Source: Nitrosopumilaceae archaeon | GTDB taxonomy: Archaea > Thermoproteota > Nitrososphaeria > Nitrososphaerales > Nitrosopumilaceae | Direction of reading: 5' to 3' | Assembly (NCBI GenBank): GCA_965200155.1 | Contig: CBDATR010000024.1 | Span: 256,001 to 320,000, forward strand | Length of the DNA: 64,000 nt | Shown: positions 19,939 through 46,955 of the stretch, one piece after another | Layout: each line of letters starts with the position of its first letter | How positions within the stretch are numbered: position 1 is the stretch's first letter | The notes under the pieces: model-generated | Database searches by the model: none | What the model was told of the DNA's origin: nothing | Seen by the model: the letters and a program-made list of their open reading frames with translations, nothing else | Translations under genes and position numbers: made by a program

Positions 19939-20045
19939 GAGCCCGCAGGGAATTCTGCTGGACCCAATCGCACCCAGGTAACCATTCTTGGAATGATGCG
20001 CCAATACAGGAGCCCGCAGGGAATTCTGCTGGACCCAATCGCACC
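19939..20045. repeat. Exact 36-bp direct repeat flanking a 35-bp unique insert
   Basis: gagcccgcagggaattctgctggacccaatcgcacc at 19939-19974 and 20010-20045. Confidence 0.95.
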
Positions 20046-20347
20046 AGCCCCACACACGACCCACACCAATCTCGTTTGCGAGATGGCAAGAGCCAAATTT
20101 CTCCAGTATTGAGTCCTTATGTATGCGGCTGGCGCCATCCCACATGTGCCCCATACTGATCTCTTTTGAAAGACGTTCATAATCATAGCCCAATTCATTC
20201 AACATATCACTCTGACGAGAGCTAACATACCAAGACCACAACCGCACCATACTTATCTCTCTGATGAGACGCGAATAGCCAAATTTGGCCACCATTGTCC
20301 CCTTATGGATATCGGTGCAATGGACCCAGAGACATCATACCTATCTC

Positions 20348-20448
20348 GTATGAGTTCACCTGTGTCTAAATTTACGCACAACTGATGGAACAGGTTGTTC
20401 TAGTTAATGTGATTTGTGCATAAGATTCCGGAAGACGTGAACTCATAC
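20348..20448 (-). mobile_element. 101-bp MITE variant B, copy 4
   Basis: 12-bp TIR; TSD cctatctc; central agaacaacctgttcc replaces gtcgcg. Confidence 0.95.
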
Positions 20449-21098
20449 CCTATCTCGGCCACGGCACGATCATAACCTATTTCATCTAGCAGAGTATTCT
20501 TGTGCTCTGCGCTGAACCAATCCCACAACTGCTTCATGCCTATCTCATTTGCAATGCGGGTATAGCCAACCTCCTTTAACATGGAATTACGTTTGTTTTT
20601 GAACCACCGACTATTGCACCAATCCCACAGCTCCTCCACACCTATTTCATCTGCAATACGTGTGTAGCCAACCTCCTTCAGCACGTTTTGTTTTTGTCTT
20701 TCATCACACCAGTCCCATAATTGCCTCATACCCAGTTTATTTCCAACACCCAGATCTCTGAGTTCAGCGTAAATATCCATACCCATTATGACCTGCGGCA
20801 TTATTAAAAAACAGTCATGAAATCTTGTACGCGCGTAGTCGGCAGTGATTGTTTAGTTTACCGCAAGCCAAGGCGACATACACTTTTGCCATCATTAGTG
20901 GATTCCGATACATATAGAATTGTCTGGGAAATTTGTGTGTCCGGGTAACACAGTAGTACTGAGGGCGACATCATCCCAGTATACTGTAAGAGCGCGTCAG
21001 GGCGCCGATCTCAGGCGTGTAAATTAGCCCGACATCCATCTGGCACGTCCACGCGCCTAAATCTGGAATGGTTAAACAAGCACACCGCCACACTAGTA

Positions 21099-21479
21099 CT
21101 AGAGTAAGGCTGATGCGATATTCTCATCAGTACTTATTTGGACTAGCGATGTATTCAGATGCCTCGTCTCTATGAGCATATTTATGAATCGTATCCGATT
21201 ATCGATGAACGGGTCTCCGCTACTCCCGGACTGGATATGAGATATCATGGAATCATCATCAAGCATAATACGAACGGCATCACCATTCCTTATTGCAAAT
21301 ACGCCTATACCCCAAAACAACCCCACATGCAGTGCCATGAATCTAGATTGTACTAGCGAGACCTTGTCCCGGTATATCTCTGCCTGATTGCGCCACGCGT
21401 TAAGGGTATGTCCCTTGGTGCGTATGGACCAGGCTATTCGACAAGGCGTACCGTCGCTATACAGTATGTGCTCATCCAT
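21099..21479 (-). CDS. Hypothetical protein (possible degenerate RNase H-like fold)
   Basis: 126-aa ORF co-directional with and 12 bp after citrate synthase. Confidence 0.65.
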   Translation of the reverse strand: MDEHILYSDGTPCRIAWSIRTKGHTLNAWRNQAEIYRDKVSLVQSRFMALHVGLFWGIGVFAIRNGDAVRIMLDDDSMISHIQSGSSGDPFIDNRIRFINMLIETRHLNTSLVQISTDENIASALL

Positions 21480-21491
21480 ACTTGTGCCACA

Positions 21492-22655
21492 TCAGGCCCT
21501 AAGATTTATGGGCTGGTATTCGCAACCTTGGGGCCCACAGTACTTGCCCACATAGACCGCTTTTGGTCTGTATAGTGCAGGCTTGGGGGCGGCCTCGGCA
21601 AACTTTTCCTCTATTACGTGAGCGGCCCAGCCAGCCACTCTGGATATGGCAAATATGGGCGTGTTCAGATCCATGGGTATATTCAGCATATAGTAGATGG
21701 AGGCACTGTACAGGTCCACGTTGGGATAAATGTTACGGCCCTTGAGCCGTTTCATCTCAGATATGGTAAACTGCTCCACGCGCTGGGTAATATCAAACCA
21801 CGGCTGACCGGTCTTGGCCGCCAGTTTCTTTGACATGGCCTTTAGTACAAGGGCCCTAGGGTCATAAGTGCGATAAACTGCATGGCCCATACCCATTATG
21901 CGCTCACCGCGAGCCATTCTTTCTGTTATCCAGGGCTCTACATTGTCTATATCCCCTATATCCAGTAGCATCTTCATTACCTCATAGTTTGCCCCGCCAT
22001 GCAGCTCACCACTCAGAGCCCCGATTGCGGCGCTGGTTGCAGAATACATGTGAGCCCTTGTAGAGGCCACCTGCCTGGCGGTGAAAGTGGATGCATTGAA
22101 TGTGTGCTCCGCGTGTAATATCAGGCACACATCAAATATGGTCTCCAGCTCTTTATCCGGTACCTCCCCGGACATCATGTACAGAAAGTTGGCAGCGTGT
22201 CCCAGATTCGGATCCGGATCCACCAGACTCTTTCCATTACGTATGCGCTGCCAGCTGGCCACTATAGTGGGTACCTTGGCTATCAGATTTGATGCCCTAT
22301 CATAGCTGGACTCCTTGTTCGAGAACTCCTCGTCATAGTATCCGGCCAGGGCCGCAACAAAGGCCTGTAGCATATCCATAGGATCCGCGTCCTTGCGCCA
22401 GTTACCCATGTTCTTCTGCATCTGCTTTGGAATCCACCGGGCATCTGCCATCTTTTGCCTAAATTCGCGCAGTTGATCCTCAGATGGCAGGTCATCGTGT
22501 AATAACAGATATGCCGTCTCCTCGTAGGAGGAATTCCGGGTAAGATCCAGTATGTCATATCCGCGATATATCAGCTTGCCACGACTGCCATCTATATTGG
22601 ATACACGGGTATCTGCTACCTCTATTCCCCTTAGGCCTATATTTTTGGTCTCCAC
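21492..22655 (-). CDS. gltA: Citrate synthase
   Basis: GLRG, LIYRGY, HAEHTFNAST, LHGGAN, GMGHAVY..DPR and PNVD motifs. Confidence 0.95.
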   Translation of the reverse strand: METKNIGLRGIEVADTRVSNIDGSRGKLIYRGYDILDLTRNSSYEETAYLLLHDDLPSEDQLREFRQKMADARWIPKQMQKNMGNWRKDADPMDMLQAFVAALAGYYDEEFSNKESSYDRASNLIAKVPTIVASWQRIRNGKSLVDPDPNLGHAANFLYMMSGEVPDKELETIFDVCLILHAEHTFNASTFTARQVASTRAHMYSATSAAIGALSGELHGGANYEVMKMLLDIGDIDNVEPWITERMARGERIMGMGHAVYRTYDPRALVLKAMSKKLAAKTGQPWFDITQRVEQFTISEMKRLKGRNIYPNVDLYSASIYYMLNIPMDLNTPIFAISRVAGWAAHVIEEKFAEAAPKPALYRPKAVYVGKYCGPQGCEYQPINLRA

Positions 22656-22982
22656 AGTCTCCTGCCCTTTTTAGACTAATTAGAGTTTTTCCGACAATTG
22701 TATGAGTTCAGGGAACCTTCAATCACGTATCCAAATCATACTGCTACCGAATAATTACAGTATGATTGCTGTCGAGGGAGGCGGCACCAATCATTACAGT
22801 CCACTGCGTAAACTATTCAAGCATGAGTTTATGCGCGCCGGATTGGGACTACAAGAGTCAAGGCGGGAACGCATAGATGAATAATCAATTAGATGACACA
22901 TGGACATCGGGGCTGGTTAATCATTTCACAGACATGTGCGTATAAAGTTAGGTATATTTTATCACTGGACCGTTTTGTGATC

Positions 22983-24920
22983 ATGAAGTTTGAGCTGTGT
23001 TCAGACTTTGCCCCCACCGGGGATCAGCCCAAGGCCATAGAAAAGTTGGTGGAGGGAGTGCAAACGCGCCGCGTACAGACACTGCTTGGAGTGACCGGGA
23101 GCGGCAAGACGTTCACGGTGGCAAATGTCATAGCTAGAACGGGCAAAAATACACTACTAATATCCCATAACAAGACTTTGGCGGCTCAGTTATACTCCGA
23201 GCTAAAACAGTTCTTTCCCAATAACAACGTGGGCTATTTTGTATCATTCTATGACTATTACCAGCCAGAGAGCTATATAGCTCAGACTGACACATACATA
23301 GAGAAGGACACTAGGCGCAACGACGTAATTGAAAAGATGCGGCTGGAGTCTACTGCCATGCTCCTCTCCGGCAAGCCCACCATAATAGTGGCCACTGTTT
23401 CATGTATATACTCTCTTGGCAACCCCAAGGACTGGGGAGAGCTGGCACTTAGGCTAAGTGTAGGGGACAGAATTGAGCGCTCCACAATAATACACCGGTT
23501 ACTTGACGCTCGCTATGAGCGCAACGACATGGAGGTGGCGCCGGGCAACTTTAGGGTTCGCGGCGATACCATAGATGTCAGTCCTGCATACTCCGGAGAT
23601 GTGATCCGGCTGTCACTTTTTGGAGATAATCTGGAAAGAATATCGGTGCGAGACTCAGTAACGCTGGAAGAAAAATTCAGACTGCCGTCCATGATAATAT
23701 ACCCGGCCAAACACTACCTTACTGCCAAGGATGTACGGAGTCGCGCCATGCAAACCATAAGGGAAGAGTTGAAGGAAAGACTGTATGATCTGCCGGAACT
23801 GGAAGGTCAGAGACTGCAACACCGTACAAACTATGATTTAGAGATGATAGAGGAACTGGGCTACTGTTCCGGCATAGAGAATTACTCTAGACACTTTGAC
23901 GGACGCCAGCCAGGTGAAAAGGCGTTCTGCTTGCTTGATTTCTTTGGTGATGACTTTCTTCTAGTCATAGACGAGTGTCACGTCACACTGCCCCAGCTGC
24001 ACGCAATGTACAAGGGAGACTACTCCCGGAAGAAGCAACTGGTAGATTATGGATTCAGACTGCCCAGTGCGTATGATAACCGTCCCCTCAAGTTCGAAGA
24101 GTTCGAGGAGTACATGGAAAATGTTTTGCTGGTATCGGCTACGCCTGGTGAGTACGAGAAAGACAAGTCATACAGAATAGTCGAGCAGCTAGTCCGCCCC
24201 ACGGGATTGGTGGATCCCTCGGTGGAAGTGCGGCCAAGCAAGGACCAGATGAAAGATTTGATGCGCGAGATTCGCGAGCGAGTTAAGCGCTCGGAGAGAA
24301 TTTTGGTCACAACACTGACAAAGCGCATGGCTGAAGATCTGGCCGAATATCTCTCAAAGAACGAGATACAGGTCCGATACATGCACTCTGAGATAGAGGG
24401 ACTACAGAGGACTGAGCTGATAAGACAGTTGCGCCTGGGAGAATATGACGTGCTTGTGGGCATAAACCTGCTGCGAGAGGGACTGGACATACCCGAAGTA
24501 TCCATGGTTGCAGTACTGGACGCGGACAAGGAGGGATTCCTGCGAAATTATACCAGCCTTATACAGACCTTTGGGCGCGCCGCGCGCAACTCCAATGGTA
24601 ATGTGATAATGTATGCGGATGTCATTACAAAGTCCATGAGACATGCAATGAAGGAGACAGACAGGCGGCGGAATAGGCAAATCGAGTATAACAGGATACA
24701 TGGTATAATACCGCGCACAATATCAAAGCCAATCCCCCAGAAGGAGGCAGAAGTGAATGATGTTTCTATTCACAAGAGTACACACGACTTGAATGCCGAG
24801 TTGATAGATGCAGAGTCCCAGATGAAAAAATATTCCGGCCAGCTGGACTTTGAGAAGGCCATAGAGTACCGGGACAAGATAAAAAACATAGAACGGGAGC
24901 TGAATAACCGCCGTGGATAG
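22983..24920 (+). CDS. uvrB: Excinuclease ABC subunit B
   Basis: [28 protein letters not shown] and C-terminal UVR domain. Confidence 0.97.
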
Positions 24921-27774
24921 TCTGATAGTTCGGGGAGCCCGGCACCATAACCTGAAAAACATAGACGTGGATTTGCCCAAAAATTCTCTCGTAGTTATCA
25001 GTGGCCTCTCGGGGTCCGGCAAGTCCACGCTGGCCTTCGACACCATATACGCGGAAGGTCAGAGGAGGTATGTGGAATCGCTCTCCGCATACGCACGCCA
25101 GTTTTTGGACATAATGGATAAACCGGATGTGGACTCCATAGAAGGACTCTCGCCAGCAATATCGATACAGCAAAAGACCACCAGCAAGAACCCGCGCTCC
25201 ACGATAGGCACAACCACAGAGATATACGACTATCTCCGGCTACTCTATTCCAGGGTGGGCACCCCCTACTGTCATAAATGTGAGCGACCCATATCCAGCC
25301 AGTCTGTAGAAACCATATGCGATACCGTAATACGGGAGTTTGACGGCATGGATATACTGGTTCTGGCGCCACTCATAAAAAGAAAGAAGGGCATTCACAA
25401 CAGGATCATAGCAAAGGTAAGCGCCGACGGCTACTCGCGGATTCGAGTGGACAAAACGGTACATAACCTGGATGACGAGATTCCTCCCCTGGACAGGCAG
25501 CAGTGGCACGACATTGAGATAGTCATTGACAGGATGCCCGCCACCCAATCACAGCGTACAAGGTTATTTGAGGCAATACAGACAGCGGTGGACGCAACGG
25601 AGGGTGAAGTCATGATATCCGCAGAGGGCAAGGAGAGCACACATTCCCAGAAGAATGCATGTCCTTATTGTGGTGTCAATATAGGAGAGATGGAGCCGCG
25701 AACATTCTCGTTTAACTCGCCATTTGGAATGTGCAAGGAATGCTCTGGCATGGGCGAGGAGTTTAGGCTGGATCCGGATCTGGTCATACCGGACAAGACA
25801 AAATCGATAATCGATGGCGCCATACAGCCATGGGGACCAAACATACCCCCGCCAATAATGGACATGATTACTCTCATAGCAAGAAAGTACAAGTTTAGGC
25901 TAGACACACCCATTGCGGATCTGAGCGAGAAGCAGATGGATGCGCTGGTATACGGACACATTCATTTACGCAAGGGTACCCCAGATCTTAGTGTTGGCGG
26001 TGAGAACGAAGCCAAGTATTTGTACCTAAAATCGCGCATGGGCACCGCAGACTTTAGGCTTAGTGTTGATGGGGTAATAGACCAGATTATGAGTGCTATG
26101 CCATTCATGGAGTTGGGGGATATGGAATCTGTCAAGGCCATGTTATGGAGGAACATGCCATGCTCAGTCTGCAAGGGCAGAAAGTTGCGCCCGGAGTCAC
26201 TCAACGTGCGCGTAGGGGGCAAGGGCATAATGGATGTGTGTAGTATGCCCATAAACCAGTGCATCCGTTTCTTTAAGGACATAGAGCTTGATGATACCGA
26301 GGCATTTATCGCCAGGGATATACTCAAAGAGATAAGGAGTCGCCTGAATTTTTTGAGTAATGTTGGCCTGACATATCTTACGCTTGACAGGAAGAGCGCC
26401 AGCCTGTCAGGGGGCGAGTCGCAGAGGATACGACTAGCGACACAGATAGGATCCAGTCTTACAGGCGTACTTTATGTCCTGGATGAGCCCACCATTGGCC
26501 TGCATCAGCGTGATAACTCCAGACTAATCGATACGCTCAGGTGTTTGAAGGATCTTGGGAATACCGTACTGGTAGTGGAGCATGATGAGGAGGTGATACG
26601 CAGTTCCGACTGGCTGGTGGATTTGGGACCGGCCGCGGGAGTGCACGGAGGGGAGGTGGTCTTTGAGGGAACCATGAAGGATATGACGAAGGACACCAAA
26701 TCTGTAACAGGAGACTATCTAATGGGAAGACGGCACATTACGTTAACGGACAGGGTCAGGAGTAGTGGCAAGTCACTTACCGTACTGGGAGCATCTCAGA
26801 ATAACCTAAAGGATATTGATGTGGAGTTTCCACTAGGGCAGTTTGTATGCGTGACAGGGGTATCCGGGTCGGGCAAATCCACGCTAGTAAATAGTATACT
26901 GCTAGCAGAGTTGCAGCATCGCCTAAGCCGTCCCACCACATGGGCAGGCAGGCACAAAGGCATAGTTGGAACAGAGCACATAGACAAGGTAATAAGTATA
27001 GACCAGTCACCCATAGGAAGGACACCGCGCTCCAATCCGGCCACATACATAGGCGTCTTTAGCCCCATACGGGAGTTATTTGCCAAGACCAGCATGGCCA
27101 AGTCGCGTGGCTATCTCCCAGGACAGTTCTCATTTAATGTGCAGAAGGGCCGGTGTTTTGAGTGCGAGGGCAGCGGACTGCGCCGCATAGAGATGCAGTT
27201 TCTGGCAGATGTCTATGTTAGGTGTAACAAGTGCAAGGGCAAGCGCTTTGACTCCCAGACACTACAGGTACGCTATCGTGGCAAGAACATTCATGACATA
27301 TTGGAGATGACCGTCGATGAGGCACTGGAGTTCTTTGAAAATCACAGGTCCATACATGCAAAAATAAAGACCGTACACGATGTGGGGCTAGGATACATAC
27401 GGCTGGGCCAGCCATCAACCACGCTTTCTGGTGGCGAGGCACAGCGCATAAAATTGTCATCAGAGCTGTCCAAGCGCGACACAGGACGCACACTGTATGT
27501 GCTAGATGAGCCTACCACGGGGCTGCATTTCGCGGATGTGGAAAAGTTGCTCTATGTACTAAACAGGCTGGTAAACCAGGGTAATACCGTAGTGGTCATA
27601 GAGCATAACATGGATGTAATAGCCAACTCGGACTGGGTGATAGATTTGGGGCCGGAAGGCGGAGATGATGGCGGACAGGTGGTGGCAACAGGCACCCCCG
27701 CACATGTAGCCACGACCAATACCTATACAGGACAATATCTAAAGAATATGCAAAAAATTGCTGGACATACGTAG
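24913..27774 (+). CDS. uvrA: Excinuclease ABC subunit A
   Basis: Two ABC modules ([21 protein letters not shown]), Zn fingers and [11 protein letters not shown]. Confidence 0.97.
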
Positions 27775-29341
27775 TATAACCATCCCGGAGCAGCCGGGAA
27801 TATACATAATGAAAGATGCCCAGAATGTAATAATATACATCGGCAAGGCAAAGAATTTGAGAAAACGGGTCAGGTCATATTTTAACAAGAGGCAGGATTA
27901 CAAGACAGCCAAACTGGTAGAGCGGATAAACAGCATTGAGTTTGTCCTGACAGATACCGAGAGTGAGGCATACATATTAGAGTCCGGCATGATAAAGCGG
28001 CACCGCCCCAAGTTCAACATAGAATTAAAGGATCAGGAGCGGTACACGTATCTGCGGGTAACAAGGGAAAAGTATCCGCGTCTTGTGGTTGCCAGGCGCA
28101 GCAAGAATGGTACGTTCCTGGGGGGTGGCGAGATCTTTGGGCCTTTTGTGCATGGCAGCTCCAAGCTGCTAACAATAGGAACGCTGCGCAAGACATTCAA
28201 GATTAGAATCTGCAAGACCCTTCCCAAGAAAGTGTGCCTGGAGTATCATCTTGGAAACTGCGAGGGACCCTGTGAATTCGTCCAGGCCCAGGAGAGATAT
28301 GAAAAACACATAGCCAACGTAAAGGATGTACTACGGGACAAGAATCAGTCAGGTGCATTTGCGGCCAAACTTCATGAGGAGATGACGGCGGCCGCGGACA
28401 TGCTACAGTTTGAGAGGGCACAAGAGATACGAGATACACTGACGCGACTAGGCAGCCTACAGAGCGAGCAAAAGATGTCCCACCCCCATGGTGCTGACGA
28501 GGAGTTCTTTGCCATTAAGACAAATAATGGCGAGGCTGTGGTGATGAATTTTCGCATGAGATCCGGTGTAATACGGGACAGTGAAAAGTTCTTTTTTGAC
28601 ACGGTAGGAGACAATAATTTTACCAATTTTTTATACCAATACTACACGACACACACCATACCTGAAATCATAATACTTAACGAGGAGCCGCAGAACCGCC
28701 CCATGCTGGAGAATTTGCTAAGCCAGCAGGCCGGGCACAGTGTTAGCATAATGCGGCCGACCACCCAGATGCGCCAGGGAATGATTGACTTGTTATTAAA
28801 AAATATAAACGTATTACTGCAGAATAATATTGAGCCGGGCATTCAGGAATTACAAAATGTGCTAAAAAGCAAAAATCCCCCAAAAATAATAGAATGTTTT
28901 GATATATCCAATCACGGCGAGGAGTATGCAGTGGGATCCATGTCCCGTTTCATAAATGGAAAGCCGGACAAGTCCGGATACCGCAAGTTCAGGATAAAGA
29001 CAGTAAAGGGCAGGGACGACTACTCGATGATGTTCGAGGTAGTAAGGCGCCGGTATGTGCGGCTCAAAAAAGAGAATGCAGCCATGCCGGATCTGGTACT
29101 TTTGGACGGGGGAAGGGGCCAGCTGAGATTTGCCCTATCAGCACTAAAATATGCCGGAGTGTCACTATCTTGCGCCTCCCTTGCCAAAGAGAATGAGGAG
29201 GTATACGTACCGGATCAGACTGTGCCTATACGTATGCCCAAAAGTAATGCAGGTCTCAGGATACTGCAGCATGCTCGCGACGAAGCACACCGGTTTGGGG
29301 TAGCATATAATCGCGCAATAAGACGGCAGCAGTTAAAGTAG
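27758..29341 (+). CDS. uvrC: Excinuclease ABC subunit C
   Basis: GIY-YIG, FDISN, DGGRGQ and RDEAHRF; lacks the C-terminal HhH tail. Confidence 0.95.
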   Translation: MLDIRSITIPEQPGIYIMKDAQNVIIYIGKAKNLRKRVRSYFNKRQDYKTAKLVERINSIEFVLTDTESEAYILESGMIKRHRPKFNIELKDQERYTYLRVTREKYPRLVVARRSKNGTFLGGGEIFGPFVHGSSKLLTIGTLRKTFKIRICKTLPKKVCLEYHLGNCEGPCEFVQAQERYEKHIANVKDVLRDKNQSGAFAAKLHEEMTAAADMLQFERAQEIRDTLTRLGSLQSEQKMSHPHGADEEFFAIKTNNGEAVVMNFRMRSGVIRDSEKFFFDTVGDNNFTNFLYQYYTTHTIPEIIILNEEPQNRPMLENLLSQQAGHSVSIMRPTTQMRQGMIDLLLKNINVLLQNNIEPGIQELQNVLKSKNPPKIIECFDISNHGEEYAVGSMSRFINGKPDKSGYRKFRIKTVKGRDDYSMMFEVVRRRYVRLKKENAAMPDLVLLDGGRGQLRFALSALKYAGVSLSCASLAKENEEVYVPDQTVPIRMPKSNAGLRILQHARDEAHRFGVAYNRAIRRQQLK

Positions 29342-29524
29342 TCAGAATATTATGCAAAACAGGTCTGCAAAGATCAACTAACACACGCAAAATCCAGCAT
29401 GGCTTCTTTCGAACCTATTTGGGAATAGTCAATTTCACCGCCGACTCACTCTTATCGTTCTTGATAACCCCAGCGATACAAACGGCGTGGTATGGTTTAA
29501 AAACTAATATGAACAGTAGTCCGC

Positions 29525-29806
29525 ATGGCAATACATAGGAGCAGTATGCAGATAGTAGCTGACATGCTGGTAGCCACACAGGACTATGGCAGGGAGGGAA
29601 TAAAGCCCACCATATTACTTAGCAAGGCGAATCTTTCACACTCTAGACTGGTGAAATTTCTGGAGAATCTTACTGGCGCGGGATTAGTGAACAAGATAGA
29701 GTATGACGGCAGGCACACGTTTGTGATCACCCCCAAGGGCAGGCAGTATCTTGAGTCATACCAGAAATTTTACAGTATAGCAAATTCTTTTGGGCTTGAG
29801 CTATGA
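29525..29806 (+). CDS. Winged-helix transcriptional regulator
   Basis: R.SMQI..DML, KANLSH and ITPKG pattern of archaeal wHTH; TATA-like tttaaa upstream. Confidence 0.85.
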   Translation: MAIHRSSMQIVADMLVATQDYGREGIKPTILLSKANLSHSRLVKFLENLTGAGLVNKIEYDGRHTFVITPKGRQYLESYQKFYSIANSFGLEL

Positions 29807-29926
29807 CTGACGAAAAAACACCGTAAAATGAGTAAACATTTCTTTAATTTTGTTACACGGCGCCAAAGAAGGTGATTTTTCACTCGGAAATGACATGTTT
29901 TTCGTAGTTGAAATACATGAATTGTT

Positions 29927-36612: not shown

Positions 36613-37628
36613 AACCACTGATCCAGAGTTTGGCTCTGTTTTGTCACTGCCTTCTTCATTTGGTTAAGAGTCTGCGTAACTCGTATCTTGTCAAAGTCTC
36701 GTTCAACCAGATAGTCTATCAGTCCATCATAGTCGGTCTCCTCAAATTGTATAGTGGGCGACTTTTCTACCTCTGGCTCTAGGAATATCTTTCGTATATC
36801 TTGGTATGGAATGGTATCCAAGTCTTCCTGTATCTTTGGTATGTCCTCCAGTCGGGAATGTTTTTTAATCAGTTTTAGTGCAGTCTTGGGTCCTATACGA
36901 CTAAATCCACCGGGATTAAAATCAGTACCAATAAGAATTCCCATATCCACCAGCTGATGGTGCGTGACCTCCAAGGTTTTCAGCACCTCATCCAGATGTA
37001 TAATCTCCGGTTCCACCGCGATGTAAAAATTACGATTTTGTACTTTCCGACGCCCGCTAATGGTAAAATTACGTATAAGCCGGTGCGCCCCGAAGAGTAC
37101 AGAGTCATAGTCCTGGCTGGCAGAAGCCCAAGCATGTCCCGTAATTGTAAGATAAGATGCGGTTGCCTCACCCTCAGAAGGTGCCTGGATATAAGGCACG
37201 CCAAAAAGGTCTAGAACATCCTTGCACTGATCTATCATCTCATCTTTAAGACTTGTAGTTTGTTGTGCATATACACGAGCCTTATCTGCGTCACCATCGG
37301 CCATTGCCTGTTCGTATTTGATGGCGGCATCAGCCTTGGCCATCCTTCGTTTCTCCACCTCCACAGATTTTAGTGATGGCGGCTTTCCATCAAAAACCCA
37401 GACAGGCTTTATTCCCAGACTTAGAAATTTTGAGCACCTATACAGTATTCCGTTGAGATGGCTGGTTACCACACCACTGGAATCGGTAAGAGGCATTCCA
37501 TCAGAGCCGCGAATTGTAGTCAAAAATTGGTATATGGTATTGTATGCGTCTATGGTGATTACCTTAGAGTTCAATGAATCCAGTCTAATTTTGTCCCTCA
37601 CCACCAAATCTTTTAGATTCAGGCCCAT
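36609..37628 (-). CDS. fen1: Flap endonuclease 1
   Basis: DAYN..YQFL, VFDG, EGEA, SQDYD, GTDFN and C-terminal PIP box QTLDQWF. Confidence 0.96.
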
Positions 37629-37695
37629 TACCCAAATGTACACTGGTAGACATATTTTGCGTTTTGCATATTAAGGGCGGGAGTCACCAAATTAC

Positions 37696-37781
37696 GCCAG
37701 GGTAGCCAAGTGGTTACGGCGGCGGTCTCGAAAACCGCTACGCGCAAGCGTGCAGGGGTTCAAATCCCTTTCCTGGCGCCA
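37696..37781 (+). tRNA. tRNA-Ser(CGA)
   Basis: Acceptor gccaggg/tcctggc, anticodon arm gcggt-ctCGAaa-accgc, long variable arm, gttcaaatc T-loop, encoded CCA. Confidence 0.95.
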
Positions 37782-37992
37782 CAATAATACATCAAATAGA
37801 TGCCACTATATAGTTCTGGACAATTTTTTCAAGTCTCTTATATACCTAAGATGATATAATATTAGTGAAAAGAAAATGCCATATGAAGAAGTATGCTATC
37901 AAAGGATGGCCAAAGAGAATCCCGAGGAGTACGAGTTTCTGCACTCCAAGAAGTAGTTTCTTTTCTGCTAATTCAAATGACGACGGCTGGGC

Positions 37993-38313
37993 CTAGTCTT
38001 TCCCGCTACGGGGATCGCCAGGACCCAGCATATCCTCGGGCCTGACCTCATTATCCCAGCGACCGCGATATCCTCGAATCAGCGCATAGACCCCGGATCC
38101 TAGCAATGCCAATACCAATGCAAAGAACGCAGTAGAATACTGGGTGGGGCACTCAATATTCCGGGGCGAGTTGTTATCAGTGTATTCCTCGCAGTTACCA
38201 AATTCTGTCTCTTGTAGGTTTATCTCCCTATATTGTGAGCCAAATATTCCCAACACCAAAAAGCCTGCAAATACCAATGCGACTCCGATCATCAGGAACC
38301 GAACATCACTCAT
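37993..38313 (-). CDS. Hypothetical membrane protein (two transmembrane segments)
   Basis: Two hydrophobic segments, 106 aa. Confidence 0.7.
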   Translation of the reverse strand: MSDVRFLMIGVALVFAGFLVLGIFGSQYREINLQETEFGNCEEYTDNNSPRNIECPTQYSTAFFALVLALLGSGVYALIRGYRGRWDNEVRPEDMLGPGDPRSGKD

Positions 38314-38612
38314 AATATGTATACGTCGTATACCAATATGAGTTTTAAGTTATTCTTTTGAAAAATATATCTCGTATGTATGTCAATACAATTTTTTTAT
38401 GGAATGACAAGATGCCAAGATTTACACAGGCCCGGTAATGCACTTTTCATTACGTACATAATTACACATTTCTAGTACAATATTTGCGTAATCAGACTTT
38501 TTGATTTTCCTGTGCAGACAGGACAAAGATTTAGTATGAATTCTCTTACATTTGTACACGGCAAATACGTAAATCCAGACATTTTTATCATAAAAAATAG
38601 ATCAGTGAAAAA

Positions 38613-38864
38613 TTAATAATGCCACCCTTCATCCAGATTATTCCACAGGTATCTAAGAGATGCTATATCAGTACCTATTTCCCCATTTATTCGGTTATTC
38701 AGCACAAAGTAAAAATTCTCTAGTGCGTCAAGACCACCCTCACTGTATATCTCTGCACCAATCTCAGCTATGCGGGTATGTTTGGATTCTATCTCCTTGG
38801 AGTTAGAATTTTGTAAGCAGAAAGTCATTAGATCTATCAGCTCCTCCTCAAGCATCATATCCAT
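38613..38864 (-). CDS. Hypothetical protein
   Basis: 83-aa acidic ORF. Confidence 0.65.
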   Translation of the reverse strand: MDMMLEEELIDLMTFCLQNSNSKEIESKHTRIAEIGAEIYSEGGLDALENFYFVLNNRINGEIGTDIASLRYLWNNLDEGWHY

Positions 38865-39132
38865 GATTGTTACTAGAAATTCATGTAATACAAGAGTTTG
38901 GGTTGTATGAGTTCACGTGTTTTGATCATATGATAAGATTGTAATTGACTTGGTACGACAATAGACCGTATGCGCAGAATCACTTCTCCCACCCTGCACG
39001 TCTAAACCAAGTTGTTAGATACGAACAATTGACCTAGTATCATGGGTTTTCCCACAGACTCGTGTGAAACAGAAAAGTTAAGACCTAATTTTGTAATACC
39101 AGGTATGCTAAAAGCAGAAGAACTCACCAGGG

Positions 39133-39224
39133 GTATGAGTTCACGTCTTCCGGAATCTTGTGCACAAATCACATTAACTGTCGCGATCAGTTGTGCGTAA
39201 ATTTAGACACAGGTGAACTCATAC
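39133..39224 (+). mobile_element. 92-bp MITE copy 6
   Basis: TSD caccaggg; empty site present in IS5 copy 2. Confidence 0.96.
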
Positions 39225-39350
39225 CACCAGGGAGCAGTTAGTCACAGAGTACTACCGGCTACGCACCAGGTCCGAGGCCGAAGTAACAAACCTGCGTGGA
39301 AAAAATGACCGTTTGTGTGGAAAAGTTGACAGTCTGCACGCCAAACTTGA

Positions 39351-39442
39351 GTATGAGTTCACCTGTGTCTAAATTTACGCATAACTGATCGCGACAGTTA
39401 ATGTGATTTGTGTATAAGATTCCGGAAGACGTGAACTCATAC
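39351..39442 (-). mobile_element. 92-bp MITE copy 7
   Basis: TSD aaacttga; empty site present in IS5 copy 2. Confidence 0.96.
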
Positions 39443-41265
39443 AAACTTGAAGCTCAAACAAAGAATTCCCTTGTTTCAAATCTTGATGACATCATAGAAC
39501 GCAAGGATCAGCTTCATTCCCTGACCGGATGCACTCCGGAAGAGTTCAAATGGATACTAACCAGATTCACAGAATACGTAGAGTCCCTGGAAGGCGATGA
39601 TGCACGGCGATTCTTAGAACTTACAAATGATCGCGGCCATGTGAACAAATTTCCGGTCAGGCATGTACTCTTAGTTACACTGATACGCCTGCGCTGCAAC
39701 ACAAAGCAGGAGCTTCTTGCTGCAATACTCAAGATAAACCAGTCAAACATATGCCGTTACATCCAGTTTACAAAGCAGGGACTGATCAAGATACTCCCAA
39801 CGGCCGATACCGTTGCAAAAGCAATATCGCAAATCAAGTCAGCATCGGACTTTAAGGAAATTGTTCCAGGCCGAGCCGGAGGGGAGATAAAGACTGACGG
39901 GACACATGTACGTGTACAACGTCCTGAAAAAAATCAGGAGGCAATGTACTCTGGTAAACAAAAAACCCACACGTATAACGTACAGATAACATCAAACAAG
40001 AAAAGACTGATAATTCACGTAAGTGGAGTATATGAGGGAAAAAGACACGATTATGGTATATTCAAGAATGATATTCCCCTCGGTGGCAAATGGGGCAAGT
40101 CCCTAAAAGAATCAACCACGCTGCCATCTGAGAAGATAACAGTAATAGCAGATGCAGGATACCAGGGTATGAAAGACTTCCTACCCGGCGCAAAGGTCAT
40201 GATTCCATACAGGGGTAGGGAATCACTCACTAAAACTGAAAGGAAATACAACCAATATGTATCAAAAAGGCGCATATTAATCGAGAATGTAATTCGAATG
40301 CTAAAGGTATATCGTAGATTAAGTCAGGTATATGATGGCAGTCGTGAGGAATTCCGGGAAGATCTACTCGTAGTATCCGGGTTGCATAATTTACACATTA
40401 TGCACAAGCATACCAGGTACAAGAAATTCTTGAAAAATATCTGTCCATAATTTCCGTGTTATTATAATTCGAATATTACTCATCAGAAAATCCACTAAAT
40501 TAATGGGTTTTGTGGTAACCATTTAGCTCACTCATGATATACGTCATCAAGATCCGGTCACCCCACTACACGACATTTGTAATCACGGCATACGTTAGTG
40601 CTGGCAGGTGCCATTCACATTGTTCATGCTTGACTGATTGTGTGCCATAAAATACACCCCAGTTTGAAGCAACATGGGCTATTCCTGTCAATCATGCGCA
40701 TAAGGTCTAATATTGCGCTTAAATACCAAGTTTGAAATAGAATCTAATGAGTAGGCGTACAACACATAATAAATAGGAGTAGGAAAACCGGCTGCTTCGG
40801 GACACCCTTGCGTCCACCAAGAGGAATCTTGCAGATGCGATGAAACGCGTGAAGGTATTGTAAGATGATATGTCAAATATTATAGAAGAACTGAGAAAAA
40901 TCATACAGGATTTTGGATATATTCGTCAATATGTGGCTAAATTAGAAGAAAAACACAGCAAAGCTGCGGTAGCCGCGGCCCGGCTCAAATATTATGAGAA
41001 TGTCAACTCCCCGCCATCACTCCAGTACAGGGCAGACAAGAGGAAGAGCGGAAAGCTAAGGAAGGGGAGCAGACAAGTACTGGATCCATAAGAAAGGCTG
41101 GCAGTCAGGCGAGACACAAGGGCGTCTCCCGTAAACGTAACCCCGATAGAATTACGCATCACATGAGGGCGATAACCTGGTATGCGACTGCAGTAAAATA
41201 ATGACAGTAATTGGTATAAAATCGCGATACGTGACGCATTTAATACCGGCCAGGACAGGATATTC

Positions 41266-41357
41266 GTATGAGTTCACGTCTTCCGGAATCTTATGCACAA
41301 ATCACATTAACTGTCGCGATCAGTTATGTGTAAATTTAGACACAGGTGAACTCACAC
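41266..41357 (+). mobile_element. 92-bp MITE copy 8, no TSD
   Basis: Flanks ggatattc / cgacagaa differ; joins the IS66 remnant to a TnpB remnant. Confidence 0.92.
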
Positions 41358-41903
41358 CGACAGAAAGCGAATAATATCGCGAACGACTCCATGAATAGAG
41401 TAGTCCACGCGATCACCAAAGGTGTGGACAAGGTAGTCCTAGAGGATTTATCACCGAAAGCAATGACCAGTCATGGCGGGAACCGGAAAAGAACAATGGA
41501 CCGTTCCATGCGCGAGAACCGGGTAGGCGAGTTCCGCCGGAAAGTAGTACAAAAGTGCGAGGCACTGGGGATTGAATTGGCAGCAGTGCCAGCGAGATAC
41601 ACAAGGGGGCGGTTTACCCGCCCAACGAGCCAGACCTGCCACGTGTGTGGACACGTTGACGACAAATCACGATCAACTAGGGACACTTTCAATATGTAAC
41701 CAGGAATTTCACGCCGATATCAACGCGGCGTTTAGTAACCGGTTTCCCTGTATGGGGCGGCAGAGCGTGTCGTCCGGGGTGGGAACCGTTCCCCGCCCAA
41801 CCGGAGGCGTCAGGGCGGGAATAATGGTGACAATCCAAAGCCATGTACTGTCTAGGAACGAGGTTCCATGAAAATCATAGTCAAAGACTTATGGTGACTG
41901 CGA
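41358..41903 (+). pseudogene. tnpB: TnpB element copy 4, 3' half with right TIR
   Basis: VVLEDL, CHVCG and HADINAA; ends caaagacttatggtgactgcga|TA. Confidence 0.85.
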
Positions 41904-41949
41904 TAAATGCACGTTACGGCTAAACTCATAAGGTCTATTATACGGTCTT

Positions 41950-42927
41950 GTGTGCGCGACTATTGTGGAAAAAGTCCGGTTCGTTATACCCAAAGGAAGT
42001 CTGGAAGCGGCAACACTAAAGCTGATTGGGGAAGCCTGGACCCGTGTGGTTCGCAAGAATCGCAGCTATAACATATACCTGGACGACCAGGATATACGCG
42101 TGAAACTTATGCGGCCACAGGAGATACCAACACTGGTGGCCGAGGGCCTATATGATGTGGGCATAACCGGCCTGGACTGGATACTGGAGACATCCTCGAA
42201 TGCGGAAATAGTTACAGACCTGGAATACGGCAAGATACGCCTTGTGACTGCCTTCTCTGACTCTCTGTCACATGCATCATTAAATGACATGATAGCCCAA
42301 TATGCCAAGGAGAACCGTGTTCTCCGAATATCCTCTGAGTACATGACACACGCCTCAAAGTTCGTCACCGAGTGTAGTTCGTATAAGGATAGGTTCGGCG
42401 ATGCCGAGCCACTTATCGTGACACCCTGGCTGCGCCGGGGCACTAATGACATGGTTCAGATACACCTGTCCTTTGGTGCCACCGAGGCCAAGCCGCCGGA
42501 CGATGTGGATGCCATAATAGATGTAACCGAGACCGGTACCACGCTAATACAAAACAAGCTGCAGATAGCCGATACGGTACTGGAGTCCTCTGCCCGGCTA
42601 ATTGCCAACCGCGATGCCCTGCAGGATCCGGAGAAGCGCGACAAAATACAGGATATAGCTTCTTTGCTACAGGGAGCCGTGCAGGCCCGCAAATACTTTC
42701 ACATATACTTTAACGTCCACGAGGAAAACCTGGATCGCGTAATTGAGTGCCTATCCTCGCTGAAGCGACCCACCATAAGTCCGCTGAGTGATCCACACTG
42801 GTTTGCGGTAAACACAATAATACGAAAGGATGAATATCACGTTCTGGTCCCGCAGCTCTCCCGTCTAGGGCAGGGACTGGTGGTACACGAACCACGCCAA
42901 ATACTGGCCATGGATGCCGCGCCATGA
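41950..42927 (+). CDS. hisG: ATP phosphoribosyltransferase (long form)
   Basis: PKGSL, RPQEIP, DVGITGLD, GATE and ETGTTL; start may be slightly downstream. Confidence 0.93.
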   Translation: MCATIVEKVRFVIPKGSLEAATLKLIGEAWTRVVRKNRSYNIYLDDQDIRVKLMRPQEIPTLVAEGLYDVGITGLDWILETSSNAEIVTDLEYGKIRLVTAFSDSLSHASLNDMIAQYAKENRVLRISSEYMTHASKFVTECSSYKDRFGDAEPLIVTPWLRRGTNDMVQIHLSFGATEAKPPDDVDAIIDVTETGTTLIQNKLQIADTVLESSARLIANRDALQDPEKRDKIQDIASLLQGAVQARKYFHIYFNVHEENLDRVIECLSSLKRPTISPLSDPHWFAVNTIIRKDEYHVLVPQLSRLGQGLVVHEPRQILAMDAAP

Positions 42928-44177
42928 TTCGCGTATTATGCGCGGACGACTCACAGATATTCCGGCACCTAAATTCTGCAAAATCCGGCAACCATAACAT
43001 GATACAATCAATCATTGATGCCGTACGGGAAAGGGGTGATGACGCCCTGACAGAATTTGATACAAAATTTGGCGGGGCGGCTAGCTCACTGCGCTTGGAA
43101 CAGAACGACATAAGACAGGCATACAATGAAGTCAGTCCAGGCTTGCTGGAGGCTATTCGCAGCATGAGCCATAACCTGGAACGCGCAGAGCGCGCCCTCC
43201 TTGAGACTGTAAACTCTATTCCTGACATGAATGGCATAACCCGTACATTTACGCCCATTCCCAGTGTGGGCTGTTACGTGCCCGGCGGCAAGGCCCGTTA
43301 TCCCAGCTCCGCGGTAATGTCCGTGATACCCGCGTCTGTAGCTGGCGTGGATCGTATAGTAGTTGTCTCCCCTCCTGTTCGTGGCGGCATGGATGCGGCC
43401 ACAGTAGTCGCTGCGGATCACTGCGGCGCCCATGAAATATACTGTACCGGCGGGGCGCAGGCGGTGGCCGCCCTGGCATACGGCACTGAATCCATCAGGA
43501 ATGTTGATCGCATAGTGGGCCCCGGCAGTGCGGTGGTGACCGCTGCAAAGCGGATAGTATCCGCGGATGTTTCAATTGATATGACAGCGGGTCCCACGGA
43601 GCTGGGAATATTGGCCGATAAGGACGCGGACGCTGGCCTGATAGCATTGGATTTAATCTCACAGGCCGAGCATAGCCCGGACACGGTATGTTTTCTGATA
43701 ACTGACTCGAATGCCCTGGCGCGGAATGTATCTGCAACCATAGAGGCGCGCATGGGAGGCATTGAGCGCCCTGATATAGTGCGTACCAGCCTCTATGAGA
43801 ACGGCTTTATCGTTCTATGTGATAGTAAGAATCAGGCGCTTGATGTGGCACAACGACTGGCTCCTGAGCATTTGCAGGTTATGACCCGTGATCCCCGTAC
43901 AGATGCAGCCATGATTCGTACCGCTGGCCTGGTATTGGTGGGTCATAATACCCCGTCGGCCGCCAGCGACTACATGCTGGGCTCAAATCACATTCTGCCC
44001 ACCGAGGGCAGAGGTCGCCTGCGAGGTCAGCTCTCGGTACTGGACTTTGTACGCATGAATACTCGTGTGGAGGTGAATAATCAACAAATGCAGGATATAC
44101 TGCCACACATGATGTACATGACCGATGCCGAGGGGCTGCCCAACCACTTTGAGGCGGTACGGGGGCGTGTACGATAA
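42924..44177 (+). CDS. hisD: Histidinol dehydrogenase
   Basis: YVPGG, GGAQAVAALAYG, AGPTE, QAEH, APEHL and GSNHILPT. Confidence 0.96.
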   Translation: MIRVLCADDSQIFRHLNSAKSGNHNMIQSIIDAVRERGDDALTEFDTKFGGAASSLRLEQNDIRQAYNEVSPGLLEAIRSMSHNLERAERALLETVNSIPDMNGITRTFTPIPSVGCYVPGGKARYPSSAVMSVIPASVAGVDRIVVVSPPVRGGMDAATVVAADHCGAHEIYCTGGAQAVAALAYGTESIRNVDRIVGPGSAVVTAAKRIVSADVSIDMTAGPTELGILADKDADAGLIALDLISQAEHSPDTVCFLITDSNALARNVSATIEARMGGIERPDIVRTSLYENGFIVLCDSKNQALDVAQRLAPEHLQVMTRDPRTDAAMIRTAGLVLVGHNTPSAASDYMLGSNHILPTEGRGRLRGQLSVLDFVRMNTRVEVNNQQMQDILPHMMYMTDAEGLPNHFEAVRGRVR

Positions 44178-45235
44178 TGGACTGGAATTCACGACTGGAG
44201 TGGCTTCGCAACATACCTTCATACAAGAAACCAGATATCTTGTCCGGCCTCCGTCTTGATTCCAACGAGAATCTTGCCATAGATGGACAAGATCAGTCCA
44301 AACTACTCCAAAGAGCCTGCCAGCGTACGGATGTGCGCATGTATCCACTGGATGGTACAGAGAGATTGATTGGTGCCCTGTCCGTATATCTTGGAGTACC
44401 AACAAACATGATATCTATGGGGGACGGCTCTGACCAAATCCTGGATATGCTACTATCAAACATGGCTGGTCATGATGCCCGCATTCTGACCACCGACCCC
44501 ACATTCACTCTCATTGTGAACCGTTGCAACCTGTATGGAATATCACTGACACAGGTACCATACACTGATTCAATGACACTGGACACCGAGGCCATACTGG
44601 CCCAATCCGGGGAATCCGACATACTGTACCTTGACTCGCCCAACAACCCTACCGGTTACCAGATGCCTATCAACCACCTACGGCGTATTGTGGAATCTTT
44701 TGAGGGGCCCATAATACTGGACGAGGCATATGCGGACTTTGCGCCCTATTCTGCATACTCCATGGTTGACTCCGCCCCTAACCTGGTGGTTGTCCGTACA
44801 CTCTCCAAGTCCTTTGGACTGGCTGGCCTGCGAGTGGGATACATGATCGCAAATCCTGACATTACTGAGCCCTTCTCCCGCGCCGTGCAGTATCCGTATC
44901 CCATTTCGTCTGTATCTATAGAGTCTGCAATATTGGCGCTGGAGAATCCCCGGGTTGCGGAAGACTCCTGGGATACAGTGCGCCGTGAACGACAGAGAAT
45001 TATACGCGCATTACGGGAGCATGACGTGTTTACAGTATTCGAGTCTGCTGCCAACTTTGTACTATTTGACGCAGGCGGTGCATATCGCCGTATACACAAG
45101 GCCCTGTGGGAGCAGGGTATATCGGTGCGCATGCTGGGCTCGGTGGGCAGTGCTACCGGGTGTCTGCGGGTAACGGTGGGTTCCCGGGACGTCAACTCCC
45201 GTTTTCTGACAGCGGTACGGGATCTGCTAAAGTAA
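44177..45235 (+). CDS. hisC: Histidinol-phosphate aminotransferase
   Basis: SNEN, SPNNPTG, DEAY and RTLSKSFGLAGLRVGY. Confidence 0.95.
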   Translation: MDWNSRLEWLRNIPSYKKPDILSGLRLDSNENLAIDGQDQSKLLQRACQRTDVRMYPLDGTERLIGALSVYLGVPTNMISMGDGSDQILDMLLSNMAGHDARILTTDPTFTLIVNRCNLYGISLTQVPYTDSMTLDTEAILAQSGESDILYLDSPNNPTGYQMPINHLRRIVESFEGPIILDEAYADFAPYSAYSMVDSAPNLVVVRTLSKSFGLAGLRVGYMIANPDITEPFSRAVQYPYPISSVSIESAILALENPRVAEDSWDTVRRERQRIIRALREHDVFTVFESAANFVLFDAGGAYRRIHKALWEQGISVRMLGSVGSATGCLRVTVGSRDVNSRFLTAVRDLLK

Positions 45236-46128
45236 TGAATGACATATGCCGGGCCGACGGCATAATATTCGACTGTGATGGTGTTTTGGTGGATGTGGCC
45301 CAATCATATACGGAGACCATAATCCGTACGGTGTCATACGTGATGCAGTGGTTGGGCATGCCCGGGGCGCCATCCATAACCCCTGCCATAATACAGTCCT
45401 TCAAGGATACCGGCAGCTACAATAACGAGATTGATTTGGCATATGCTGCCATACTGTGCCTGTCCGGCTCCGATCGCACCGGACTTAACCCGTCCGAGGT
45501 ACTTGATACAGGTTCCCGGTATCATGGCATATCTGACATGGAAGAATATGCTTCTACATTGGGTATATCTGATGTACTGGAGAGACTGTCATACCCAGGC
45601 AAGGACAGTATTGTCTCTGAGGTGTTTGATCAGCTGTTCTACGGGCCACGCCTTTATCATGAACGGTTCGGTATTCCATCCAGATTTAGCGAGCCTGGCT
45701 TAATAGAGAATGAGATACTGGTGATTGATACGCCGTTGTCCCAGTGGTTACGCACAAAGTTTGGCGAGCGGATAGGATTACTCACTGGCCGGAGCAGGAG
45801 ATCCGCCGAGTATACATTAGGTAAGTACATGAACTTGTTCAATGTGGATGCGTCCATGTTCCTGGAGGATATGCCAAGACACCTGGCAAAACCAAACCCG
45901 CAAACACTATCTGATGTCATTCGCGCCATGAATCTAAGACACTGTACATATGTGGGCGACTCTGCCGAGGACTTGATAATGGTAAAGGCAATGCCGGATA
46001 TGGTTACATTCGTCGGCGTATATGGCTCCGCACCAATCCCGGAGGATCGCCGCCGTGCATTTGAATCGGCAGGAGTTGTGCACATGGTGGGCTCCATTAC
46101 ACAGCTGCCCACCCTGTTGGGTCAGTAA
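45235..46128 (+). CDS. HAD hydrolase, probable histidinol-phosphatase
   Basis: FDCDGVL, KPNP and VGDSAED; coupled to hisC by TAATG. Confidence 0.8.
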   Translation: MNDICRADGIIFDCDGVLVDVAQSYTETIIRTVSYVMQWLGMPGAPSITPAIIQSFKDTGSYNNEIDLAYAAILCLSGSDRTGLNPSEVLDTGSRYHGISDMEEYASTLGISDVLERLSYPGKDSIVSEVFDQLFYGPRLYHERFGIPSRFSEPGLIENEILVIDTPLSQWLRTKFGERIGLLTGRSRRSAEYTLGKYMNLFNVDASMFLEDMPRHLAKPNPQTLSDVIRAMNLRHCTYVGDSAEDLIMVKAMPDMVTFVGVYGSAPIPEDRRRAFESAGVVHMVGSITQLPTLLGQ

Positions 46129-46251
46129 CGCATATGTGCGTAAATTCACGTCCGACGGATCGCGATGATTAGGATATGTATCGTGATTCTCGACCCAATA
46201 TCCACCAGTAATACTTTACATTGCACAGTATACCATCTCATTCTCAGTATG

Positions 46252-46343
46252 GTGTGAGTTCGCTTGCGTTTACATTAATGCATAGCGGATCGTAGCAATC
46301 AGTATGGTTTTTGAGCACTGGGATTGGAGATGCGAATTCATAC
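46252..46343 (-). mobile_element. Ancient degenerate copy of the 92-bp MITE
   Basis: gtgtgagttcgc...gcgaattcatac, same 92-bp length, internal similarity by eye, no TSD. Confidence 0.65.
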
Positions 46344-46845
46344 AATCGGGATGTGTGGTTGGTGCTTAAGTGATCGTACTGCCTAAACGGTTTAACTGGT
46401 ACGTGAACTCAAGTTTGTTGTATAATCAAGTTACGTTGAAAAATTGCACTGGTGACAATAGTTTGTACATTTCCATCAGTGACAGTCATTAGATCCAAGT
46501 CAATAGTACGAAAAGTAAGTCCGCTTAGGATCCGGCGTACAGTAGTTCAGATTGCACAAGCCATATGGTAAAGAGAATAACAGAGGAATCAAGACAAAAG
46601 AGGCGTTGCCACAACCAACATAGCTCAAGACCCGAAACAAGACACGTACGAAGATTGTGAACCAGAGAACGGGAACTACTCGAGTAAAGATGGGCAGGCC
46701 CATGATACCAATCACCGCCACCCAGATACGAATGGTAACTGAATCATACAGCAAGGATCCCGCCGGAGTAGTACGTATTGCAAAGAGGCTTAGACATGAT
46801 ACATATCGCGCAGTATATCGCATAATGAAAAAGAACGGTACGGCA

Positions 46846-46955
46846 GGCTCATCACCTGCAAAGTCAGAGTGGGTACGCTATGCTGACTTGCTTGGTGCAC
46901 GATTCCATGCCGCTGCTCGGCTCATCACCTGTAAAGTCAGAGTGGGTACGCTATG
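46846..46955. repeat. 37-bp direct repeat (1 mismatch) flanking a 36-bp unique insert
   Basis: ggctcatcacctgYaaagtcagagtgggtacgctatg at 46846-46882 and 46919-46955; single copy in the paralogue at 4282-4318. Confidence 0.95.

Follow-up and report, generated by a model that had tools for sequence, protein, structure and literature searches.

Natural off-target spacer integration, very probably by a resident type I-G Cas4/Cas1-Cas2 machinery, in a Nitrosopumilaceae archaeon

The enzymes that extend CRISPR arrays do not always insert new spacers at the array. In Escherichia coli, off-target integration produces neo-CRISPR loci (Nivala et al. 2018, via 10.1101/148544 and PMC6698737), an outcome that needed artificially up-regulated acquisition machinery, and the evidence in two other species has been called 'circumstantial' (10.1101/148544, PMC6698737). 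In vitro, Cas1-Cas2 of Pyrococcus furiosus carries out full-site integrations at non-CRISPR plasmid sites, spaced by 30 bp, favours G as the base attacked and uses off-target sites that are only ~43% identical to the repeat (PMC6698737), and ectopic spacer acquisition has been described within the CRISPR arrays of Streptococcus (PMC7999890, PMC5338259). In type I-G systems adaptation is performed by Cas4/Cas1 fusions (PMC10504553); in the excerpts of that paper on which we draw, we found no passage on off-target integration. Nor did a search of titles and abstracts, with subscription journals mostly outside its range, return any report of natural off-target integration on a large scale. Here we describe two repeat-insert-repeat units, events 1 and 2, in a 64,000-nt stretch of genomic DNA from a Nitrosopumilaceae archaeon (the window: C24:256001-320000, contig CBDATR010000024.1 of assembly GCA_965200155.1, called G000 below; 2.38 Mb in 51 contigs, 87.6% complete). 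We consider it highly likely that both units arose by off-target, non-canonical spacer integration through the resident type I-G Cas4/Cas1 fusion and Cas2, and that they are thus natural 'neo-CRISPR' loci.

Solo units in the window and across the genome

Both events consist of an insert between two copies of a short host sequence, and the preliminary description of the window, made from its letters, had given the two structures and their 71- and 73-bp units exactly as we find them (Table 1). The duplication is 36 nt long and 100% identical in event 1 (unit length 71), and 37 nt long in event 2 (unit length 73); apart from a protein repeat with a 102-bp period, the two are the sole short-range direct repeats of such a kind in the window. 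The same description placed both targets in neutral pseudogene DNA, which proved right in part only, in that the event 1 insertion itself breaks an otherwise readable frame. On the minus strand both repeat copies of event 1 encode the peptide CDWVQQNSLRA, and removal of the 71-bp unit fuses two pieces into a single open frame of 34-amino-acid repeats. The gene fragment concerned (19855-20801, minus strand; pattern EIG..LWDWC, 102-bp period), frameshifted by event 1, has no family match above any curated cut-off.

The two events turn out to be members of a large set. When every contig is scanned for direct repeats offset by 55-94 nt, a sharp peak appears at repeats of 36-37 nt separated by gaps of 35-37 nt (16 pairs with a repeat of 37 and a gap of 35, and eight pairs each for 36 and 36, 36 and 37, and 37 and 36, in the same order), against 0-4 in adjacent size classes. 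With the main CRISPR array set aside, 68 units have repeats of 33-41 nt, gaps of 31-41 nt and unit lengths of 69-78 nt. We dropped two of them, tandem repeats of the low-G+C contig C40 in which 'insert' and repeat look alike; the remaining 66 solo units represent 60 distinct inserts at 49 distinct targets, and in 47 of the 66 the repeat pair is without mismatch. Two further kinds of locus stand outside this count. At C9:70403-70587, three copies of a 37-nt host sequence alternate with two spacer-sized inserts in the very gap that separates the end of cas4/cas1 from the start of cas2; insertion has struck the adaptation operon itself two times. Elsewhere the whole repeat-plus-insert unit has been amplified two to four times (C9:44444(-44860), C10:53266, C10:319716, C24:382929, C24:472912 and C31:2838), probably by unequal recombination between the duplicated targets.

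Many of the targets can be compared with their uninterrupted state, since 26 of the 66 events lie in multicopy sequence for which at least one paralogous site carries the target once, between the same flanks. For event 2, 33 paralogous copies of its element are empty in this sense. Event 1 has no paralogue, and a DNA search of its region across 41 genomes gave no match outside G000. Its stretch is present in public sequencing runs from four studies, labelled as sponge metagenomes or with coded organism names. A 537-nt contig of run X9, from an independent study, joins 19938 directly to 20010, skips 71 bases and otherwise shows no differences, the 36 letters at the joint fitting either side; it is the empty allele of event 1. 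The filled allele is represented in run X5 by a contig that covers 19945-20039 and so spans the insert, while the listed contigs of runs X1 and X6 end or begin inside the event 1 repeat copies. These run contigs are of low depth and show presence only.

The G000 genome is rich in repeats, with families resembling insertion sequences (IS) in 55-82 copies each. Separately, 29 of its contigs, 176 kb in all, have a G+C content below 43% (35-42%, vs 45-52% in the rest). These low-G+C contigs hold a single off-target unit, on the 1.6-kb contig C51 (the C40 tandem rows excluded), and none is matched by a native spacer; they may derive from another organism or from mobile elements.

The resident type I-G system, its inserts and its targets

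The resident array, on contig C9, has 289 repeats of 36 nt (ATTTCCGCAGCCTAACGGTTGCGGCCTCATTGAAGG), the last of them degenerate, and spacers of 35-39 nt. Native repeat-spacer units measure 71-75 nt with a mode of 73, and off-target units measure 71-75 nt with a mode of 72. Upstream, next to the array, are Cas2 (35.4 bits, cut-off 24.5) and a Cas4/Cas1 fusion (NCBIfam cas4g_cas1g; 710.7 bits, cut-off 560) that is the sole Cas1 match in the assembly; downstream, on the opposite strand, are Cas3g, Csb2, Csb1 and a Cas3-extension protein. The Cas4/Cas1 fusion, Cas3g, Csb1 (Cas7g) and Csb2 (Cas5/6) all score above their NCBIfam cut-offs, and by these family scores the system is of type I-G. The large subunit Csx17 (Cas8g; TIGR04113) was not found in G000, at 87.6% completeness, nor in the related genomes G005, G006 and G023; it was found in the positive controls G001 and G041. 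An IS5-family transposase sits directly upstream of csb1 (C9 ~99.4-100.3 kb), where the large-subunit gene would be expected. Traits by which neo-CRISPR loci are recognised are found together here: the duplication has the length of the resident repeat, the insert falls within the resident spacer range, the 'repeat' is single at empty sites, the inserts are diverse, and Cas1 and Cas2 are encoded in the same genome.

The inserts behave as captured DNA. Near-full-length matches elsewhere in the assembly exist for 35 of the 68 inserts; without one C40 entry and the five from the hot-spot family described below, whose 'donor' is itself flanked by the same repeat, 29 of the 60 distinct inserts have a host donor (or 28, if two that differ by a single base are counted as one), and for 21 the match is perfect. 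The insert of event 1 is among them: its first 33 of 35 nt are identical to a site on C35, one of the last two bases differs, and the donor is located upstream of a membrane-protein gene, in sequence where all frames are short. For the insert of event 2 no donor was found in the assembly, nor among viral and metagenome contigs, where the scans covered exact matches only. The native array presents a different picture, with a single spacer among 288 matching the genome outside the array, and that one match is to an off-target insert, C25:4760. This insert overlaps native spacer 58 over 28 nt, at an offset of ~10 nt, and then continues into sequence that is not CRISPR repeat; one foreign region has therefore been sampled twice. 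In base composition, inserts without a donor (46.9% G+C) are close to native spacers (45.6%), and inserts with a donor are at 50.5%. We read off-target inserts and native spacers as products of a single sampling machinery. On this reading, self-derived spacers would be purged from the expressed array by autoimmunity and kept at off-target sites that are silent.

Donors are unevenly placed in the assembly. Among the 24 that occur at a single place, 15 lie on contig C10, which makes up 22.7% of the assembly (binomial p = 3e-5); they are spread from 28 to 479 kb along it, and one donor is included twice among the 15. Contig C10 could hold a replication terminus or be a separate replicon.

The targets are chosen with a weak preference that is best seen at their borders. 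Nine events have both a donor and unambiguous borders, and of these seven show a duplication of 36 bp and two a duplication of 37 bp, so that the ruler has one base of slack. Reading each border of the 16 targets of exactly 36 nt inward gives 32 half-sites, of which 28 have A or G at -3, 15 have G and three have T at position 0, 15 have T at +2, 17 have G at +3, 28 have A or C and none G at +4, and 18 have G at +10. The outcome is a symmetric border motif (R at -3, G at 0, T at +2, G at +3, A/C at +4 and G at +9/+10) whose summed chi-square of 200 compares with 99 +/- 14 at random genomic sites and was reached by none of 2000 random sets. The ends of the native repeat share with it the T at +2 and the C at +4. 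Compared in register with the native repeat, the targets average 12.9 matches in 36, vs 11.4 +/- 0.28 at random, a value reached by none of 500 random sets; single targets match at 8-18 of the 36 positions. A full-length target motif, sought by expectation-maximisation over orientation and register, was set aside: its likelihood of 248 exceeds the 151-173 of 12 random control sets, which had fewer restarts, its consensus is weak, and we rely on the half-site count instead.

Certain targets are hit again and again. Six have been struck independently two to six times, with different inserts, and the main hot spot, which lies in a 55-copy element, is occupied at 13 of 55 loci by six distinct inserts, with two repeats at six loci, three at six and four at one. 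Its repeat ends in CATTACAAGG, and the native repeat ends in CATTGAAGG. Across the genome some neo-array loci have 3-6 repeats. Where the hot spot is occupied, the copies have in common the insert most distant from one flank and differ in those closer to it, an order that, judged from very few loci, looks like polarised growth at a pseudo-leader. One pair of spacers recurs as an array in several copies of the element, as though transposition of that element had spread it.

Table 1. Positions of the two events and of related features (plain numbers refer to the window; C24 and other C labels give contig and contig position)
Feature	Position	Remarks
Event 1 target, first copy	19939..19974	Identical to 20010-20045; run X9 contig joins 19938 to 20010
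Event 1 insert, 35 bp, spacer-sized	19975..20009	Copied host sequence, C35:35832-35864
Event 1 target, second copy	20010..20045	Excising 19975-20045 restores one open frame, minus strand
Event 2 target, first copy, 37 bp	46846..46882	Within degraded copy of a multicopy IS-like element
Event 2 insert, 36 bp	46883..46918	Donor not found
Event 2 target, second copy	46919..46955	1 mismatch to first copy
Donor (protospacer) of the off-target insert at C25:19042	27196..27231	C24:283196-283231, 36/36 identical
Unoccupied hot-spot target copy	47006..47041	Target holds different inserts at C24:245716 and C34:19810
Hot-spot mini-array loci	C24:500844-501060, C10:6462, C10:210130, C13:25654, C13:47756, C24:97241, C31:2838, C51:127	

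Relatives offer a measure of how unusual this abundance is. Cas4/Cas1 fusions of 58-66% identity occur in six genomes, of which four belong to the same genus and two to different genera of the family (homologues from a wider contig search, 38-51% identical and from unrelated phyla, were not used). Two congeners with homologous I-G systems were scanned. In G006 (G+C 61%, with a homologous 36-nt repeat), 800 kb contained two isolated units of the right size and one beside protein repeats; in G005 (G+C 45%, with an array of more than 100 repeats of 36 nt), the 800 kb scanned held no solo unit. The density in G000 is ~28 units per Mb, exceptional among the three genomes sampled, the two relatives at 29% and 36% only. 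Long coding repeats with a 75-bp period in G006 (contig C1, ~875-889 kb and 1123-1132 kb) mimic the spacing of repeat and spacer, and were filtered from the scan. As for the cause of the density in G000, relaxed selection together with abundant dispensable DNA may have let the scars persist there; a higher or less faithful activity of the integrase is an alternative explanation.

Mechanism and competing explanations

The general pathway that we envisage is that of ordinary adaptation, carried out at the wrong address. Consider a Cas4/1-Cas2 complex that has captured a prespacer of ~35-38 bp. The complex would attack two phosphodiesters on opposite strands, 36-37 bp apart, a distance that acts as the ruler for the 36-nt CRISPR repeat, and gap repair would then leave a copy of the 36-37 bp between them on either side of the insert. 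The same reaction would lengthen the CRISPR array when it took place at the leader-repeat junction; elsewhere, it would leave a solo 'repeat-spacer-repeat' in which ordinary host sequence takes the place of the repeat. Presumably such units yield no functional CRISPR RNA, and for this reason self-derived inserts would be tolerated and would accumulate, mostly in IS copies and other dispensable DNA.

Several points weigh against this account and deserve to be set out together. The link between enzyme and events is one of dimensions and co-occurrence. The relative G005 possesses the same kind of system and yet shows no units, so the system alone cannot explain the density in G000. No donor has been identified for 31 of the 60 distinct inserts, that of event 2 included. 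The flanks of the donors show T at -2 in 25 of 58 ends vs ~15.5 expected, a weak signal, with TTC at six ends and ATA at six, and no clear protospacer-adjacent motif (PAM) emerges from them; no native spacer has a protospacer in the assembly from which a native PAM could be read. The border motif prefers G at +3, where the native repeat has T. Finally, a 13/16 match between the two window inserts, taken up below, is uncommon (~0.3-0.7% of pairs) and is here ascribed to chance only.

Might the units instead be genuine mini-CRISPR arrays or solitary functional units, inherited or borne by mobile elements? The loci that reach 3-6 repeats would suit this idea, as would the position of the main hot spot within a multicopy element, the farthest spacer shared among its copies while those nearer the flank differ in the manner of polarised growth, and the resemblance of its repeat end to the 3' end of the native repeat. 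We think it very unlikely all the same, given 49 different 'repeats', each of them ordinary host sequence with empty copies elsewhere, and given that about half of the distinct inserts would target the cell's own chromosome; the window units themselves are two copies each of unrelated host sequence, sitting inside a reading frame (event 1) and an IS copy (event 2), unlike a functional array, whose several units share one repeat akin to a repeat that is processed by Cas proteins. A different integrase, whether a casposase or a second Cas1 encoded on a plasmid since lost or in the 12% of the genome missing from the assembly, could be accommodated by an assembly that is 87.6% complete. Casposon target duplications, however, are ~14-15 bp long, the assembly has a single Cas1 match, and the duplications and inserts here have the lengths of the resident repeat and the resident spacers, so that we hold this explanation to be very unlikely. 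If the pattern came from slippage in replication, tandem duplication, templated repair or an artefact of assembly, one would have to explain why the inserts bear no relation to their flanks and are exact matches to distant, unique donors, why sizes are restricted to 36-37 and 35-38, why independent runs contain contigs of both the filled and the empty allele of event 1, and why an identical scan yields nothing in 800 kb of G005; amplification of the whole unit two to four times at some loci fits slippage or unequal recombination, acting after a first event. As the origin of the pattern, we regard such processes as extremely unlikely.

The preliminary description put forward yet another explanation as a hypothesis, namely a micro-element or cassette in which variable flanks surround a conserved core, TTGGYGCAYSATTCCA, and which a dedicated system inserts into the genome with duplications of ~36 bp. 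It was correct that both inserts carry this 16-nt motif and that no other copy exists in the window, where, with up to two mismatches allowed, 13 of 100 shuffles gave at least two matches. The likeness of the two inserts is rare by the standard of their kind: among random pairs drawn from the 68 inserts, 22 of 3000 share a best 16-nt window with at least 13 matches, 12 of those 22 being 16/16 pairs, which makes the 13/16 match an uncommon coincidence for a single pair (roughly 0.3-0.7%). Beyond these two, however, the motif does not recur. At up to three mismatches it is confined to two of the 68 inserts genome-wide and to none of the 288 native spacers; in event 1 it sits inside the host donor on C35, with another copy on C43; and the sequences that flank it do not align between the two inserts. 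The CTG that was said to begin both inserts is likewise unsupported as a common feature, being found at 5 of 120 insert ends vs ~1.9 expected, with ATC and AGA at six each, and the ends carry no conserved letters of the sort that define a mobile element. Further events with motif-free inserts had been named at the outset as the result that would count against the cassette, and this is what the genome-wide scan returned: 66 events, the motif in none beyond the original two, and inserts that are unrelated pieces of host or foreign DNA. We therefore reject the new micro-element, to which we attach a negligible probability. Other parts of the preliminary description fare better. Its suggestion of a Cas1-like integrase with a ruler-like staggered cut of 36-37 bp is supported, the result fits the 'plain off-target CRISPR adaptation' that it named as an alternative, and its remark that no enzyme is visible holds for the window and fails for the genome, with its Cas4/Cas1 fusion and Cas2. 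A practical lesson follows, that the dimensions of solo 'repeat-spacer-repeat' units should be compared with those of the resident CRISPR before a new element is proposed.

Host, significance and comparison with described systems

An archaeal AmoA is encoded at C24:323578-324126, 3.6 kb past the end of the window (383.6 bits), and from this gene, taken with the sponge-metagenome labels of several of the runs, we read the host as a sponge-associated ammonia-oxidising archaeon. CRISPR-Cas genes are reported to be enriched in such symbionts (PMC9289680), and the passages on CRISPR consulted in that paper make no mention of off-target integration. Within the window lies a 101-bp element resembling a miniature inverted-repeat transposable element (20348-20448), with perfect 12-bp terminal inverted repeats; the 2.38-Mb assembly contains 555 near-full-length copies with a mean identity of 87%, many of them at 97-100%, and in sponge metagenome runs the contig depth over the element is ~1000-fold above that of its flanks.

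Regardless of why the units are so dense in this genome, some 60 independent events in the wild amount to a natural map of target recognition by type I-G Cas4/1-Cas2, with its ruler, its border motif and its hot spots. They also give a view of prespacer sampling before selection, in that about half of the inserts are self-derived vs none among the 288 spacers of the true array, and this self-derived share bears on the cost of naive adaptation. CRISPR adaptation can, moreover, break genes, as event 1 frameshifts an open frame, and the solo units and neo-arrays are candidate intermediates in the birth of CRISPR arrays. A bolder view, tentative and to our minds rather doubtful, is that the type I-G integrase is at once a genome-wide, weakly sequence-specific mutagen and a cradle of new arrays, leaving an uncensored log of what it captures naively, roughly half self and half foreign, of the kind that autoimmunity would normally wipe from true arrays, with the hot-spot array grown in polarised fashion and spread by copying of its element. 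If this were true, CRISPR arrays would be born and dispersed on insertion sequences in nature.

The closest parallel is with the neo-CRISPR loci of E. coli, as far as the sources cited above describe them. Common to both are the spacer-sized insert, the duplication of resident-repeat length, the non-CRISPR sites and the possible birth of an array. The events in G000 differ in being natural, with 60 distinct inserts in a 2.4-Mb archaeal genome and a type I-G Cas4/1; half of the inserts come from the genome itself, hot spots are used repeatedly, and 3-6 repeats are reached at some loci. With the in vitro reaction of P. furiosus, as reported in the portion of PMC6698737 consulted here, they share attacks that come in pairs, one on each strand, spaced by the length of a repeat, a preference for G where the attack falls, bases conserved by position both close to the borders and inside the target, and targets that resemble the repeat little (the ~43% identity in P. 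furiosus). There the ruler is 30 bp and the substrates are plasmids, whereas in G000 it is 36-37 bp and the products are fixed or polymorphic alleles of a wild chromosome; the border motif (R at -3, then G-N-T-G-M) is specific to the G000 system. Ectopic acquisition in Streptococcus, on the evidence of the cited accounts, is alike in that integration occurs away from the leader-proximal repeat, and unlike in that true repeats within an array are used there and unrelated host targets in G000. With type I-G adaptation as outlined in PMC10504553, G000 has in common the module of a Cas4/Cas1 fusion and Cas2, its membership resting on score, and differs in that its donor flanks show a weak PAM-like signal only. 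In this context, the mechanism is one already known; what is new is a natural and unusually rich instance of it, in an archaeal system of type I-G.

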